Assembly: GCA_963674945.2 (NCBI GenBank)
Contig: CAXXWQ010000004.1
Location: 1,280,001-1,344,000, forward strand
DNA length: 64,000 nucleotides
Reading direction: 5' to 3'
Origin: an uncultured Desulfosarcina sp.
GTDB lineage: Bacteria; Desulfobacterota; Desulfobacteria; Desulfobacterales; Desulfosarcinaceae
In this document: positions 56,158 through 63,935 of the stretch, in pieces
Numbering within the stretch: the stretch's first letter is position 1
How the letters are laid out: every line of letters begins with the position of its first letter
Notes under the pieces: generated by a model
What the model saw: the letters and a program-made list of their open reading frames with translations, nothing else
What the model was told of the DNA's origin: nothing
The model's database searches: none
Program-made: the position numbers and the translations under genes

Positions 56158-57249
56158 TCAACGATGTTCTTTATCTTTTTTTGTCAATGAGTGCCCAAAT
56201 TGTATTGAAGGCTTTTCCAGGCAAACGTATATAGCGGAAGAGACAAGAACAGTGATGAGAAGTACGACTGTCATATAGACAGAAAGGTGGTAACCGTTTC
56301 TCATACTTGCGGACTGTGCCATTTTTATCACTGCTTCCATAACGATGGGGTGGAACAAATAGACCGAATAGCTGATTGCCCCCAGCCACAAGAAAAAAAC
56401 GGGGACTCTTTTAACACACAATCCGGACACAACGAACATGCACCAAGCCACGGTGTGTGCCACGCCGAACTGAAACGGACGATCTGACAAATTCACACCA
56501 AATTTTGAAAACAGGTAAACTCCGATCGGAAATCCGAAACAGACGCATGTCGCAATGACAACCTGTCTTCTCGATTTTACATTCAATTCTTTGTTCTCAT
56601 ACACATTTCGATACAAGGCGCCCAGAAACATGATACTCAGAATATAGGGAGAATACATGATCTCTTTGTCGACACCGGCGAAGAGATCGCTGGCTCTGTT
56701 CACCCCCTGGGACAAGACGAATAAGAGAAAACAGAAAAGGCTCCACGAAAAAAGTGATTCGTGTTTATCCAGATGACCATAATAAAAAATGACTGCGCAC
56801 AAAATATAGAAAACGAGTTCTACCTGGAGCGTCCAATACAATCCGATTAAATGAGGTTCTCCGAATAGCCGTTGCATCATTGTGGTATTGGCTGCCACTT
56901 CAATGACGCCGATATGATCTCCCCAGATGTAACCGATTCCAACAACCACAAGAATCGACAGCCAATATACCGGGTAGAGTCTAAAAAACCTTCGAATTGC
57001 AAAGCGTTTGATGGCACCATCCGTGTGACTTTGCAGACTGAATGGAATGACAAAGCCGCTAATCAGGAAAAAGCAAATGATGCCGACCCGGCCGAAATCG
57101 ATACGGTTTGCCAGATCGAATAACAACGTGCCTTTATCGGCGACACCGGGCAACTGGACAAATCGTTCCGATGTGTGCTGCCATGCGACAAGAAGTGCTG
57201 AGATTCCGCGCAATGCATCGATGTGAGCCATCCGCTGAGATCTGTGCAT
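56158..57249 (-). CDS. acyltransferase family 3 (OafA-like)
   Basis: IDALRG, FFLISGF, RRFFRLYP, WTLQVE, GAISYSVYLFH, EKP. Confidence 0.9.
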   Translation of the reverse strand: MHRSQRMAHIDALRGISALLVAWQHTSERFVQLPGVADKGTLLFDLANRIDFGRVGIICFFLISGFVIPFSLQSHTDGAIKRFAIRRFFRLYPVYWLSILVVVGIGYIWGDHIGVIEVAANTTMMQRLFGEPHLIGLYWTLQVELVFYILCAVIFYYGHLDKHESLFSWSLFCFLLFVLSQGVNRASDLFAGVDKEIMYSPYILSIMFLGALYRNVYENKELNVKSRRQVVIATCVCFGFPIGVYLFSKFGVNLSDRPFQFGVAHTVAWCMFVVSGLCVKRVPVFFLWLGAISYSVYLFHPIVMEAVIKMAQSASMRNGYHLSVYMTVVLLITVLVSSAIYVCLEKPSIQFGHSLTKKDKEHR

Positions 57250-57271: not shown

Positions 57272-57988
57272 TCAGAATAGCGGGGCGATAAAACACCCGC
57301 CACCACCCCCGGAGCTTTCTCCGGCTGCCTGGGTGGAGAAGGTTCCCGAGCCATCTCCGCTGCTCCAGACACCCGATATCTCCCCGGATGTGGTGACCTG
57401 GCCCTTGGCGCCGGTATCGCTGTGGCTGATGGCGATAATATTTCCCCGGCTGTCCACCATCCCCATGTAAATCGAGTCCGTTTCATCAACACCGTTGATT
57501 TTAAATTCCCCGCTGAACTGGCCGTCGGAAGTGATTTGAGCATCACACGTACCGGTGTAATCACCGTTGATGTAGAGACTGTAATGGCCGACATAAGGAT
57601 CTATGCTTCCGGTATCCTGTTCTCCGCGAACGGTTCCCTCATAGCCCAGGTAAGACCATGTGCCGCTGACAATACCCGCTTCCAAGATCGATCCTTCCAC
57701 CCACATTCCACAAGCGGAGGTAAAGGCAAAATTGCCGCTGTCATCCACCGTGGCCCATCCCGCCACATAATCGACAACCCGTTCCCGTTCGGACCAGATA
57801 AGGCCATAAAGACGGCCCCGTGAATCAACCTGCGTGATGGCGATACCACTGATGTCACCATTGAAAGTACAGGTATAGGCACCGGCAAAGTCCTCCGGTG
57901 CTGCGGCGGCATTTGTAAAAAGACCATTGAGAAGAATGAGTGACAGGATCATAATGGATGCAACTGCAACGGTACGTCGTCGACACAT
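57272..57988 (-). CDS. exported repeat protein with a C-terminal GGGGGCFI (CFI-box-CTERM-like) tail
   Basis: signal peptide, two similar beta-rich halves, ends SSGGGGGCFIAPLF. Confidence 0.75.
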   Translation of the reverse strand: MCRRRTVAVASIMILSLILLNGLFTNAAAAPEDFAGAYTCTFNGDISGIAITQVDSRGRLYGLIWSERERVVDYVAGWATVDDSGNFAFTSACGMWVEGSILEAGIVSGTWSYLGYEGTVRGEQDTGSIDPYVGHYSLYINGDYTGTCDAQITSDGQFSGEFKINGVDETDSIYMGMVDSRGNIIAISHSDTGAKGQVTTSGEISGVWSSGDGSGTFSTQAAGESSGGGGGCFIAPLF

Positions 57989-58222
57989 ATCGCCCTCCAA
58001 TCAAAAATGCTGACGGTCTGCAAAATGGAATCTGCCGGAACGGGACTTCAAGTCCATGACAGTCGGAAAGTGTACATTGGGCTAATACCACTTAATGGGA
58101 CCGGAGTCTATACGGTGTGTTGACTGGAAGCAAAAACGGCGTGGAGAAATAATTTTCTGCGGCATGCAGCGCCGATCGACGACAGCGATCGATGAAGATG
58201 TGTGATGATTTGAGGATTGAGG

Positions 58223-58271
58223 TGGAGGCGGCAACCAGATTCGAACTGGTGAATGGAGGTTTTGCAGACCT
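58223..58271 (-). tRNA. 3' half of tRNA-Cys(GCA), an att-site duplication and not a complete tRNA
   Basis: minus strand AGGTCT-GCA-AAACCTCCATTCACCAGTTCGAATCTGGTTGCCGCCTCCA gives anticodon arm, T arm and CCA; the 5' acceptor strand and D arm are absent. Confidence 0.88.
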
Positions 58272-58658
58272 TTATTGACAGCCTGTAAGGGGTTGTTTTT
58301 TCAAGCTGTTTTTATCTCCAGAATTTTGCCTGTTGTGGATTTTGATGGGACTTGGTCAAGAGCTTTCACGGCGTTCAATTTATGGTCCGGCGATGGGTGT
58401 TGATACCGCATGGCCATCATTGTTGTCTTGTGCCCCATTATTTCCATTATGGTCTTCAAGTCTGCCCCTGCCATACCAAGTCTGCTTCCGAATGTGTGGC
58501 GTAGGTCATGAAACCGGAAACGGACTGTTTTATTCCCTTCCTTTCTTGTCAATTTGGCCTCTTTTACGGCATACCAAAAGGCATTCGTCAACTGGGTAAG
58601 TTTCCTACCTTTCGAAGTGCAAAACACATAATCGGATTCACTGACATCTAAACGTCTT

Positions 58659-60314
58659 CCTGTTTCCGTGGCACAAAACCTGATTAAAACACTATAACCA
58701 ATTGATAAAACATATATATTATGGTAATATTAGGGCACTAAACGCTCACTTCGGAGGTGAAATCAATGCGGCGTCCGATCACCATAAAACACGAGATGGA
58801 AAAACTTGCCAGTCATAGCGGATTGATCAATATCGGCGCATTACTTGATGCGATAAATTTCAGGTTCCGTTTCGAAAAGATCAACGGCGTCCATTGTGTA
58901 GACCCGAAAATTTCTCATGGTGACATTTTAGCTTCGATGATTGCTCTCATGAGTATTGGTAAACCTGATTACGATGCGATCGAGATTTTTCGTGAGAAGC
59001 AAGAATTTTTCAACAAGGCCATTGGCAATCGTGCATGCCCGTCAAGCCCGACATTGCGTCAGCGAATCGATTTGATCGGCAACCAAGCCGATAAGCTGAT
59101 TAAGGATGCAGGCGTTGATTTGGTTCGATCCTGCGCTCCGGCGATTTCACCCATCCAAACCAGTGCGGGTGATTTCCTTCCTTTGGATATGGATGTGAGT
59201 CCGTTTGACAACTCAAAGACTCAAAAGGAAGGCGTTTCCAGAACCTACAAAGGCACGGATGGCTTCGCTCCGATCTTTGCCTACCTGGGCACCGAGGGGT
59301 ATCTGGTGAATCTTGAGTTCAGAGAAGGAAAACAACACTGCCAGAAAAACACCCCCGAATTTATCAACGCCACCTTGGATTATGCCAGGCAAATTACCGA
59401 TCAGCCTATTTTGATGAGGTTGGATTCAGGAAACGACAGTCAAGACAACTTTCCTGACGATTCACGAAAGAATGTCCACTTTATCATCAAACGCAATTTG
59501 CGTAGAGAATCTGTTCAAAAGTGGGTTGATCTGGCAAAAAAATCCGGCAAGCAACAGCATTGCCGCTCAGGAAAATGTGTATGGATCGGAAAGACGATTG
59601 AAGACATCAACGGCAATCCATTGCGCTACCCAATCATCTTTGAGGTTACCGAAAGGCATACCAAAAAGGGCCAAGTACTGCTGTTCCCCGAGTATCAGAT
59701 CGATACCTATTGGTGCAGCCTCGCACAGTTGCCACCGGATGAGGTGATTCGACTTTATCACGATCACGGTACCAGCGAGCAGTTTCACTCCGAACTCAAA
59801 TCCGACATGGGCCTGGAGCGCTTGCCGAGCGGTCATTTTTCCACCAATAGCTTGATTCTTCATTTGGCGATGCTGACGTACAACATGCTACGGATTATCG
59901 GACAAATCAGCATCGAAGAGAGTGATCCGACTGAATTGCCCGGTATACGCCGGAAGAAAGTTACCCGGCGTCGAATCCGGACAGTCATGCAGGACTTGAT
60001 GTATATGGCCGGTCGATTAGTAACCAGAAGTAGAAAATGGTACATATCCTTTGGCCAACTCAATCCATTTTCCAAACTGATGGATCGGATTTATCTTCGT
60101 CTGAATTTGCTTTCCGCTATGAAGTAGCTATAATTTTTAAAAGAACAATTTTACAGGCATTTGCTTGGTGATTTGCTATGGCTAAAGAATGAGAAACAGG
60201 AGCAAAATTCCTTCGAAATTTGAAAATAGTGAGAAAAATTATCAACAAATGATGGTGTGTGAGGCAATCGCCCCGCGCCAATCCTAACAGCAAAAATTAG
60301 GCCACTGATTCAGG
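58659..60314 (+). mobile_element. IS1380-family insertion sequence (1656 bp)
   Basis: imperfect IRs CCTGTTTCCGTGGC / GCCACTGATTCAGG (11 of 14 match); 5-bp target duplication GTCTT at 58654-58658 and 60315-60319. Confidence 0.9.
58757..60127 (+). CDS. IS1380-family DDE transposase
   Basis: LDMD, RLDSG, YHDHGTSEQFHSELK, LPSGHFSTN motifs. Confidence 0.9.
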   Translation: MKSMRRPITIKHEMEKLASHSGLINIGALLDAINFRFRFEKINGVHCVDPKISHGDILASMIALMSIGKPDYDAIEIFREKQEFFNKAIGNRACPSSPTLRQRIDLIGNQADKLIKDAGVDLVRSCAPAISPIQTSAGDFLPLDMDVSPFDNSKTQKEGVSRTYKGTDGFAPIFAYLGTEGYLVNLEFREGKQHCQKNTPEFINATLDYARQITDQPILMRLDSGNDSQDNFPDDSRKNVHFIIKRNLRRESVQKWVDLAKKSGKQQHCRSGKCVWIGKTIEDINGNPLRYPIIFEVTERHTKKGQVLLFPEYQIDTYWCSLAQLPPDEVIRLYHDHGTSEQFHSELKSDMGLERLPSGHFSTNSLILHLAMLTYNMLRIIGQISIEESDPTELPGIRRKKVTRRRIRTVMQDLMYMAGRLVTRSRKWYISFGQLNPFSKLMDRIYLRLNLLSAMK

Positions 60315-61150
60315 GTCTTTGTAAAACCTCCTTCAGCGTATCATTTAAAGGGACTTTTCTATTTTCGTGATTTTTGGTATCGGTGGCCAGCAAAAACCTA
60401 CCAGAGAGGTTTACATGGGCCTTCTTGAGATTGAATATTTCCGCTTGCCGTAGGCCGCTGTGAAGAGCCACCATTACCAAATCTCTCAAATATTTCTTTT
60501 TACCTCGTTGTGGGCTTTTTGCGCATTGATCAAGAAACCGTTTTTCCTGCCCCGGTGTCAATACCCACATCTTTTCATTATCTTCTTTCAGCAGCTTCAC
60601 ACCAGAAATAGGATTCGATCTTAAATATCCCCACTGAACGGCCATGTTCAGCATATTTCGAAGTGTGGCCACGTCCCTATTAATTGTTGCCGGAGCCTTC
60701 CCATCATCCCTTCTGAACTTCTTGTACCGCTCGACATCCAACGAGTAAATCGATGTCAAGAGCTTCCCCTTGAAATGAGGCGTCAACATGGTTATCGATT
60801 CCCCATTTCGCCTGGATGAGTTTGGCTTTTTATTCACCTTTGCATGTTCAAGGTATTTTTCGGCAAAGGTTTCAAATAAAATCCGTTTTGCCTTCTGTTG
60901 ATGCTTTCCTTCTTTAACTTCGGTCCTGAATTTACGATCCTCCTCTTTCGCAAAGGTTTTACTGACTTCCCCATGCGCTTTGGTGTACCTCCCTCCATTG
61001 TACCAAAAATCAGAATACCAGCTGTTACCACGTCTATACATGCTGCCTCCTTTTTTTCTAACGCCTGCCGCCCCAGGCGACCGCCTTGTAGGTTTGAACA
61101 CCCTGTAACTATGTATCAAAGAATTGTTTGGGAAGGACGGTGACTTATTT

Positions 61151-61218
61151 GATGAACGAACTTCTCACCGAGTTCTGGCCGCGGAGTGACCAGAAACCGG
61201 TGAAGAAGCAGGTTATCT
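61151..61218 (-). other. attC site of cassette 2 (68 bp)
   Basis: minus strand AGATAAC-CTGCT-TCTTCACC-GGTTTCTGG...CCAGAACTC-GGTGAGA-AGTTC-GTTCATC. Confidence 0.85.
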
Positions 61219-61947
61219 TTGGTTTTGTTTATTGTAAACTTTCATCATTGGAACGATAGTTTTTTCAATATATTTTTCTATTGCCGATGTCATTTCTGCA
61301 TCTGAGTATTTTTGTTTAATTTTGAAAATTTCATACCTACATGAGATGAAATTCAAAATATTGATACCCCATGAGAGGTCCTTGATGAATTTTACCAATC
61401 CTTTTTCCATATCATTGAAAATTTTCTTTTGACTTACTTTGACCCCAAATTGGAAGCTATCATTAAATTTTTGGCTTTGATCTTTAAAAAAATCTTGTTT
61501 TTGTAGGATTTCACCTGTTTTTTTACTTAGTGCTTCAGTATATGAAATTTTACTTAGCTTGTAGGCAACAATCGGTTTAACATTTGACAATTCAAGTATC
61601 GAATTACCAAAGTTTTGTTTAAAGGTTTCATCCACTTCGCGCGTAATTGGTTCAATTATAGAAGTTAAAAATTGAAGACAAAACTGATTCAAGGTGGATT
61701 CATCAACGCTCATTAATTCTTTCAATTTAGGATGTTCTTTCAAACGATTTGAGTATATAGCAATGAAGCTGTCAATATTTTTCAGGACAGAAGTTACGTG
61801 AAGAAGTTTTACAAGATAAAAAATTGATTGGTTAATAATTCTAATTTTTTGATACCGCTCTTTAAGAATAAAACCGGCCCCATTAAGTACCGAACCAACA
61901 AATAAGCCAAGCATACCAATTATTGCAGCTATGATTGTTGTATCCAT
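61213..61947 (-). CDS. hypothetical cassette protein with an N-terminal TM helix
   Basis: 244 aa, AT-rich; stop codon lies inside the attC R'' box. Confidence 0.8.
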   Translation of the reverse strand: MDTTIIAAIIGMLGLFVGSVLNGAGFILKERYQKIRIINQSIFYLVKLLHVTSVLKNIDSFIAIYSNRLKEHPKLKELMSVDESTLNQFCLQFLTSIIEPITREVDETFKQNFGNSILELSNVKPIVAYKLSKISYTEALSKKTGEILQKQDFFKDQSQKFNDSFQFGVKVSQKKIFNDMEKGLVKFIKDLSWGINILNFISCRYEIFKIKQKYSDAEMTSAIEKYIEKTIVPMMKVYNKQNQR

Positions 61948-61967
61948 TTTAATAATACCTGCTGAAG

Positions 61968-62098
61968 AGATAACGCTTCATTTCACCAGGGCGCAGGCAG
62001 GGAATATTAAGAGCTTTTGATAAAGATAAAGCTTTGATAAATCTATGCACTCCAAAAATGCCATGACCCCTGCGCTCTGGTGGAAATGGTGGTTGGGT
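61968..62098 (-). other. attC site of cassette 1 (131 bp)
   Basis: minus strand ACCCAAC-CACCA-TTTCCACC-AGAGCGCAGG...CCTGCGCCCT-GGTGAAA-TGAAGC-GTTATCT. Confidence 0.88.
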
Positions 62099-62113
62099 GA
62101 TGAATCATTATCA

Positions 62114-62797
62114 TTAAGACTCAAAGTTATTTCCTTTGCCGAGATTACATGCAGAACATTTTGTTTCAAGATTTTCCGGAACGGTTTCGCCACCTTTAGA
62201 CCATGGCACAATATGATCTACATGTAATTCAACTCCTGGTGAATTTAGTGGACTTGCCCCACACTTACGGCATGTGAAACCATCTCGCATAAGAATTCTA
62301 AAACGCAAGCGAAGTGAAATATTTCGTGACGTGCGCTTACGTGGTGGTGTTTTCTTTTCGAATTGTTGATCGACACTATTATCAGGGCTATCACCAGTTT
62401 CAATGTCTTGGTTGATATATTCTACAAAATTATTGAGTGCTTTTCGCCAGCTTCCGAATTTGCTCAGGTATGGCGTAATGGAGCAGTCTGAAATCGGAGG
62501 CTTCATATCTTTTGCTTTAGGTTGGCGACCAAGAGTTATCCAGACTTTCTCAAGGTTTTGAAAAAGATCTTTCTCAGACAGGTTAAAAACCATTCCTTTT
62601 TTTAGACCAGCCTTTTCTATGGTCTTGTTCCAAGAACCGAAACGCTTCATTAATGTATCTGGATGAAACTTACCGTGCTTTCCATACTCTGAGACAGATA
62701 CCGTATCCTTTCCCAGTTTTAAAGCGACCCTATTAAGGTCGGAAATCATTTCCTCAGAAGGGGTATCTCTATGATAAGTTTTCAATTCAAACTTCAT
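62114..62797 (-). CDS. HNH endonuclease with two N-terminal homing-endonuclease-associated-type repeats
   Basis: two (R/K)FGSW repeats; LMRDGFTCRKCG...LHVDHIVPWSKGG...NLETKCSACNLGK. Confidence 0.88.
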   Translation of the reverse strand: MKFELKTYHRDTPSEEMISDLNRVALKLGKDTVSVSEYGKHGKFHPDTLMKRFGSWNKTIEKAGLKKGMVFNLSEKDLFQNLEKVWITLGRQPKAKDMKPPISDCSITPYLSKFGSWRKALNNFVEYINQDIETGDSPDNSVDQQFEKKTPPRKRTSRNISLRLRFRILMRDGFTCRKCGASPLNSPGVELHVDHIVPWSKGGETVPENLETKCSACNLGKGNNFES

Positions 62798-62827
62798 TAT
62801 ATTACGATCATTCCATTTTTTCTGAAC

Positions 62828-62900
62828 ACCCAACATTAATATTCTATAGACGTCTATTTTACGTCCAATATGGGGATGATATCTTGACGTCTTGATAACA
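62828..62900 (-). other. attI-like first recombination site
   Basis: GTTGGGT at 62834-62828 with no attC arm upstream; preceded by three GACGT motifs (including the palindrome ATAGACGTCTAT) and a GTTATC. Confidence 0.55.
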
Positions 62901-62988
62901 CCCTGAATATGGGCAAAAAATAGAAGATTTCACTTTGCTACGTATTTGGAACCGGTTCTTTTTCAGGAAATGATGATTGGAGATTCAA

Positions 62989-63017
62989 AGAATATCCAAA
63001 GGTATTAAATCTGTCAA
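62989..63017 (-). promoter_or_regulatory. sigma70 promoter facing the cassettes (Pc-like)
   Basis: TTGACA-17 bp-TATTCT on the minus strand. Confidence 0.65.
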
Positions 63018-63097: not shown

Positions 63098-63122
63098 ATG
63101 GGGTGGTAAAACACCACCCCAT
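63098..63122 (-). terminator. hairpin downstream of the 63138-63494 ORF
   Basis: ATGGGGTGGT-AAAAC-ACCACCCCAT perfect 10-bp stem. Confidence 0.55.
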
Positions 63123-63682: not shown

Positions 63683-63743
63683 GACGGAACCTCCTTGTGG
63701 TGTGTGGTGAAGGATTACCGCCATCTTTGTCTCCAAACAAAAA

Positions 63744-63820
63744 TGGCGGCGCACACACGGTTGGAGAACCGGCCCACAAGGATACCGGCGAGCCCGAAGG
63801 CTCCCGTATATGCACCGCCA
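63744..63820 (-). ncRNA. C4-type antisense RNA (P1 C4 / P4 CI-like)
   Basis: 77 nt; closing stem UGGCGGUGCAUAUACGG/CCGUGUGUGCGCCGCCA, GAGCC-UUCG-GGCUC hairpin, CCUUGUGG loop and UCUCCAA junction, each complementary to two flanking targets. Confidence 0.85.
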
Positions 63821-63935
63821 AAGTATAAACATAGTACAGAAACAGAAAAACGCCATACTATGAATTGGGCGCTTATGCACCTTGTGGAAAATCCGGTCTC
63901 CAAACCGGGCAACGGAATTTGCCGTTACAGATATA

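Follow-up and report, generated by a model that had tools for sequence, protein, structure and literature searches.

The array described here lies in a window of 64,000 nucleotides from the genome of an uncultured Desulfosarcina species (genome G000; the window is G000:C4:1280001-1344000). The element that bears the array is 12,250 bp long and is flanked by 49-bp repeats of the tRNA-Cys 3' end (Table 1). It carries genes for a P4-family primase, an excisionase-like HTH protein, a weakly matching small-terminase-like protein and a phage-type integrase, as well as a C4 RNA, and no virion or structural genes were found in its 12,250 bp. Integration at a tRNA gene with att repeats, an integrase, a primase, regulators, a length within 7-20 kb and a lack of virion genes are features expected of phage satellites, and the element presumably resembles those of the P4/PICI type, a label that is our own rather than the output of a classifier. 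The satellite feature that the element does not show is an intact integrase, because an IS1380-family element splits the gene.

The two integrase pieces match adjacent stretches of a single homologue in genome G015. The insertion sequence, of which G000 holds 26 full copies, was absent from the earlier note on this DNA, and because it splits the integrase gene, the island is probably unable to excise by itself. The same note had described the integrase as phage-type and co-oriented with the array, and both descriptions stand, since the protein matches phrog_1 and scores only 24-26 bits against TIGR02249, for which the cut-off is 265. Among the joints listed for contigs from four sequencing runs of one study, a type of data that loses rare variants, none corresponds to excision of the island. 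Viral contigs yielded no real relative of the element integrase or primase, and a search for longer integrase relatives gave none at E 1e-40 with a length window (427 aa and up) that was ill-suited to the purpose. Just beyond the right att site lie an acyltransferase gene of lower GC content (window 56158-57249) and a gene for an unannotated, secreted-looking protein (window 57272-58000).

Table 1. Features of the integrase-free cassette array and of the island that carries it (window positions unless stated otherwise).
Feature	Position	Strand	Details
Right-hand 49-bp repeat of tRNA-Cys 3' end (att site)	58223..58271	-	100% over 49 bp; ARAGORN
Second 49-bp repeat, inside intact tRNA-Cys	G000:C4:1350424-1350472 (outside the window, 12.2 kb off)		100% over 49 bp; ARAGORN
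Phage-type tyrosine integrase, C-terminal piece	58301..58658	-	
IS1380-family element, 1656 bp	58659..60314	+	456-aa transposase; GTCTT target duplication; splits the integrase
Phage-type integrase, N-terminal piece	60315..61041	-	
attC2, 68 bp	61151..61218	-	own scan and folding
Cassette 2 gene, 244 aa	61213..61947	-	no known family; cassette 30% GC
attC1, 131 bp	61968..62098	-	own scan and folding
Cassette 1 gene, 227 aa	62114..62797	-	two HNH_repeat domains and an HNH nuclease domain
attI	62828..62976	-	crossover G|TT at 62834; GACGT repeats and, upstream, an imperfect palindrome; belongs to a family of dispersed orphan attI sites
Predicted cassette promoter, TTGACA-17-TATTCT	63017-62989	-	155 bp ahead of the crossover
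Hairpin, 10-bp stem, no T run	63098..63122	-	after the last upstream element gene
C4 antisense RNA of satellite-like element	63739..63825	-	RF01695, 70 bits

Two genes were said to be followed each by a canonical attC site, and the layouts of both sites bear this out. The attC1 site is composed of R'' ACCCAAC, a 5-bp spacer, an 8-bp L'', a 7-bp L', a 6-bp spacer and R' GTTATCT. It has no mismatch between L'' and L' and is among the 22 candidates listed, out of 111, from a genome-wide heuristic scan. Its bottom strand folds at -21.9 kcal/mol (z -3.27, with 1 of 200 shuffles equally good) and its top strand at -18.0. For attC2, which has R'' AGATAAC and R' GTTCATC, the bottom strand folds at -13.1 (z -3.11). 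These calls come from our own heuristic scan and folding rather than from the IntegronFinder covariance model. The R boxes match as expected of circular cassettes, in that GTTGGGT (62834) pairs with ACCCAAC and GTTATCT (61974) with AGATAAC, each at seven of seven positions.

The cassette 1 protein belongs to a widespread family (3681 of 3897 candidates pass E 1e-30). PADLOC gives weak HNH-domain matches only, and a defense role for this protein is thus a guess. Integron cassettes in general often encode small defense systems, according to one report (10.1101/2024.07.02.601686). The protein of cassette 2 has no family in Pfam, PHROG, PADLOC or NCBIfam, and its Atlas neighbors are unnamed. None of the joints listed for the same four sets of contigs, which lose rare variants, corresponds to excision of a cassette. 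Sequences like attC1 (window about 62000-62064; L009:4501-4565) occur in the sequencing-run contigs at roughly 10 times the depth of the locus, which suggests an abundant attC1-related family of attC sites in the sampled community.

Upstream of the first cassette, the earlier note recognized a site that is not an attC, is like an attI and contains GACGT repeats, which we locate at 62891, 62865 and 62854. The comparison with complete integrons is in agreement, because the same core precedes long-type intI genes at two loci. At L118 (genome G352), the long-type intI is divergent and frameshifted, and the 29-bp core is found 240 bp ahead of it, in register and with four mismatches in the last 30 bases. 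At L195 (G104), the core lies in register, with eight mismatches, about 235 bp before an intact intI whose 439-aa ORF scores 388 bits against TIGR02249. The alignment scores of 48 (L118) and 39 (L195) were each reached by none of 2000 shuffles. Both loci belong to a set of 29 long-type intI loci that were fetched, 27 of them with upstream DNA, and by eye three further loci have the end motif in common with the site. Proteins of the long type (about 410-440 aa) have an additional domain of about 100 aa at the N terminus and occur in 24 of 251 genomes of the order; they include those at L195:675-1991, L118, L067, L068, L092, L095 and L101. It is a guess that this extra domain binds the repeats of the orphan attI.

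The point at which cassettes join the site gives a second line of evidence. Across 47 copies with at most six mismatches to the core, a set in which the core was selected on and the bases after the G were not, conservation stops at the G. The following bases are T in 34 copies, T in 40, purines in 38, 35 and 35, and a pyrimidine in 30, and thus lean to GTTRRRY. Because the heuristic attC scan, which is strict as well as noisy, detects only 4 of the 56 first attC sites at orphan sites, R boxes were compared in its place. In 9 of 29 distinct GWT junctions, the window and L118 included, the exact complement of the R box stands where the first gene ends, whereas permutations gave 0.65 such junctions on average and never more than 4 in 2000 runs. 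The other 27 of the 56 sites were omitted because they have no GWT junction, first gene or sequence, or are duplicates.

A palindromic repeat or operator, with cassettes landing at chance GWT sites nearby, could also produce an imperfect palindrome whose model matches both strands and which is multi-copy in the manner of a MITE. However, two complete integrons have the site where their attI belongs, and the GTTRRRY bias and the 9 R-box matches among 29 junctions fall at one fixed base, so we give this explanation almost no credence. By these sequence comparisons, the upstream site is a genuine attI, and its cognate enzyme is likely the long-type IntI of Desulfobacterales. An attI family that is invisible to IntegronFinder is here newly defined, and a new attI sequence is paired with the long-type IntI. 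The earlier note had set a host-like attI and a passively captured CALIN fragment against each other. With at least two attC sites by our scan and folding and no intI nearby, the array is also a CALIN, and both descriptions apply, namely that of a CALIN fragment that retains a genuine attI.

The predicted promoter and the hairpin are less secure. The TTGACA-17-TATTCT box is the best of five promoter-like matches, but shuffles yield 6.1, and the scan alone is thus no evidence. Its position speaks more favorably, because in 10 of the 22 full-length copies of the site the top score goes to a TTGACA-17/18 box that lies between -184 and -195, matching the distance of the window's box. The hairpin proposed to insulate the array does have its 10-bp stem, whereas insulation finds no backing, as no intrinsic terminator was found.

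Copies of the orphan site come in two upstream forms. The window has a distinct block, 79% conserved across genera and containing an imperfect palindrome, and the conserved upstream sequence of this intI-less form extends over about 150-190 bp. The other form keeps a spacer like that of L118, and in L056 the DNA likeness runs into the start of intI; these copies are decayed integrons. No intI remnant was detected upstream of the window's form, either with DNA profiles or with protein profiles built from the N-terminal halves of 6 and of 30 long-type IntI sequences (best window E 2.5-2.8). A likeness to intI seen there by eye was rejected after a consensus-peptide test in which 334 of 1000 shuffles were as good. 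Since no remnant is detectable, the proposition that the window's form has lost its intI would rest on its relatives.

The attI mostly occurs without an intI, as an orphan that is dispersed across the family, in which it was likely a spare point of gene capture in the past and may be one even now. With a query of 213 bp, copies turned up in 10 of the 41 genomes. A site model built from 14 copies found them in 27 of 65 genomes of the family and in 10 of 150 genomes of the order, G000 counted, including 11 places in G000 itself. Among 55 sites that were found by the site first, only L118 has a long-type intI upstream. None of 11 further site loci has an intI within about 1.5 kb, although for several copies the contig ends too close by to tell whether an intI is missing. 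The 29-bp core is absent from all 21 intI loci of the genus, in which the best matches have 11-16 mismatches of 29, and an exact-pattern search of viral contigs found no site. No intI lies directly adjacent to the attI of the window.

The neighbors of orphan sites are mostly ordinary chromosomal genes, such as those for ligases, aminotransferases and regulators. The phage-like carriers are the satellite-like island of the window, a Mu-like prophage in G000 (C3:423416), a Mu-like prophage of G009, where the site is next to the repressor, and possibly a second island in G009. The G000 prophage (L013, G000:C3:414700-423430) has a shortened orphan attI and a matching cassette, followed by defense-like genes for a kinase, an HNH protein, PDC-M11A/B and a TPR protein. 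A further IS1380 copy lies just upstream. Inside a Mu-like prophage of G009 there is a lone attC cassette (L115:17047-17177) that is inserted against the gene direction.

The earlier note regarded the array as a swappable cargo hotspot carried by the element. That the element evolved it as its own hotspot is not supported by the related elements, which lack the site, nor by the broken integrase, nor by the contexts of the site, most of which are not phage-like. Neither the site nor an attC was found at any of eight loci with related primases (35-45% identity), three of which stop at a contig end. A weak match in one related element (L253) was dismissed as chance because it sits inside the integrase gene. 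No close relative of the window island was found among the genomes searched, and in G015 the element that occupies this tRNA has lost the part with the array. Because related elements are without the slot and that of G015 has lost this part, the slot is not established as a conserved feature of the satellite family. Exchange of cassettes between conserved flanks, another expectation, was not seen at orthologous solo sites, and the sole clear between-genome orthologous pair (L160/L162) has the same cargo.

A broader version of this idea holds that orphan attI and promoter form a maintained, integrase-free capture module that is served in trans by any resident IntI and that satellites and Mu-like phages use as a swappable slot. 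There are up to 11 sites per genome, the position of the promoter-like box is kept in 10 of 22 copies, and hardly any two copies have the same first cassette. The site is present in the window satellite and in both Mu-like prophages, of which that of G000 has its own cassette array, and the cargo includes defense-like genes (PDC-M11A/B, kinase, GmrSD domain). The host attI resembles the site in that both contain an identical run of 11 bases with similar flanks, and a different orphan copy lies beside an attC that has 98% identity to one of the host array. However, the spacing from motif to crossover in the host attI is off by 6-7 bp, L160 and L162 have identical cargo, most copies lie outside phage-like DNA, and no excision joint is among those listed for the contigs. 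Moreover, 20 of the 29 junctions have no exactly matching attC, and many orphan copies look decayed for this reason. We consider this module tentative and rather doubtful. The same holds for its fullest form, in which attI plus promoter would be a mobile lineage that seeds up to a dozen capture points per chromosome and gives phage-like elements a defense slot reloadable by any host IntI, a proposal to which we assign well under an even chance.

A different kind of movement is indicated by two pairs of loci (L083/L084 and L159/L167) whose first genes are 97-98% alike and whose upstream DNA is different, from which we infer that blocks of attI plus gene move. If such blocks were moved by IntI as a unit, like a delta-attI-type or composite cassette, into secondary GWT sites, the island would be only one target among others. 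Copies of the site inside attC arrays (L045, L017) would fit this, and the 65 bp beyond attC2 (window 61090-61153) have a 74% homologue at G000:C3:838528-838592, which lies before an unrelated gene and has no such platform in front. Precedents are attG insertion (10.1101/2022.09.11.507474) and delta-attI cassettes (PMC12901181). However, the alignment shows no common sharp left boundary at GWT, and transfer as a block appears improbable.

The earlier note was correct that no intI lies near the array, and the host does have one elsewhere. An intact 351-aa short-type intI (G000:C3:2206227-2207282) heads an integron with about 11 attC candidates, and it is the only match above the TIGR02249 cut-off in G000, on another contig than the window. 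No long-type IntI was found in G000, which consists of four contigs and is 98.7% complete. That the array borrows the host IntI in trans is a possibility with evidence on both sides. The host intI exists, and its attI aligns with the window site at a score of 51, which none of 2000 shuffles reached and which is the highest among the 21 intI loci compared. Against this, the cognate long type was not found, and the spacing of the host attI from the common motif to the crossover differs from that of the window site. Non-cognate pairs of attI and IntI are generally inefficient, according to two reports (PMC8946536; PMC2095811). Because the site aligns with the host attI and attC1 resembles an attC of the host array (77% identity over 124 bp to C3:2186496-2186618), the host IntI may have filled the window site.

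Several other observations concern the host integron. The attC pair with 98% identity, at an orphan array (G000:C1:364327-364389) and in the host integron (C3:2188590-2188652), has opposite apparent orientations and only about 90 bp in common. Within G000:C3:2206227-2208248 (L011), the host intI lies directly upstream of a lexA-like gene with a LexA DNA-binding domain and an S24 peptidase domain. A lexA-like gene also follows intI in G007, G023 and G009 (L063, L064 and L069 were likewise noted). The first cassette of the host integron (G000:C3:2204556-2205936) consists of two genes and gives a weak match to DarT, and the array is riddled with IS elements. A truncated piece of a short-type intI without an array is present at G000:C4:3239044-3239478.

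Our preferred explanation, which we hold with modest confidence, is an intI-less array of two cassettes, headed by a predicted promoter and a genuine attI, in a satellite-like island at tRNA-Cys. An intI-less form of the attI, with its conserved upstream DNA, has been dispersed to many places in genomes, and the R-box matches suggest that an IntI put cassettes in at G|TT. The satellite-like island likely acquired the array as cargo, and the IS1380 insertion in its integrase has since likely immobilized it. The predicted promoter would express the HNH gene first. The short-type IntI of the host is likely still able to remove cassette 2 through attC x attC recombination, or to insert cassettes at an attC, while efficient use of the non-cognate window attI by this enzyme is doubtful. 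Current use of the window attI in trans is possible. The 79% conservation of the upstream block counts against our explanation, because it looks more like selection than decay. So do the lack of a detectable intI remnant in that block, the likeness of the window site and of attC1 to sites of the host integron, and the closeness of several copies to contig ends.

Small CALINs are usually regarded as debris of integrons or as attG insertions that arose by chance, in part since standard tools miss attI sites outside class 1. In this bacterial family, many small arrays and apparent single genes sit at dedicated landing sites that are free of an integrase and have a predicted promoter, some of them in phage-like elements. 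With the orphan attI family, it becomes testable whether an IntI reloads intI-less arrays in trans and which IntI does so. Should the sites be no more than remnants, they would be a modest extension of known CALIN biology.

P4-like and PICI-like satellites carry cargo hotspots beside the integrase. The island resembles them in its tRNA att site, tyrosine integrase, P4-family primase, excisionase-like HTH protein and C4 RNA, in the lack of any structural gene found and in its low-GC cargo beside the integrase. It differs in that the cargo takes the form of integron cassettes, the integrase is broken, and no Psu/Sid or capsid homologue was found.

The literature that was covered, which included few subscription journals, yielded no account of this attI or of an orphan attI family dispersed in this way. 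A CALIN is a cluster of attC sites without an integron integrase (IntegronFinder 2, PMC9024848), and two reports already describe CALINs as mobilizable in trans (PMC11389934, PMC9668308). The window array has two attC sites and no intI nearby, as CALINs do. However, it retains an identifiable attI and a predicted promoter, and the attI lineage is conserved, multi-copy and family-wide. IntegronFinder detects no attI outside class 1 and therefore would miss that of the window. SALINs and attG insertions (10.1101/2022.09.11.507474) likewise place cassettes outside a complete integron, but attG is a GWT consensus only, whereas here a long conserved site has one base reused in many copies.

The closest phage-borne parallel is Shewanella prophage M16-3, which according to its report has a CALIN with its own attI (PMC9892861) and thus also an attI-headed array without an adjacent intI in phage DNA. 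The Shewanella prophage itself also contains a complete integron whose attI is of the same type. In our case, no IntI of the cognate type was found in the genome, the array is carried by a satellite-like element of 12 kb, and copies of the site turn up at many unrelated loci. The long-type IntI integrons of Desulfobacterales (L118, L195) have in common with the window the 29-bp attI core, the crossover register and a related upstream repeat. The window is without an intI and has instead a different conserved upstream block and an inverted copy of the repeat.
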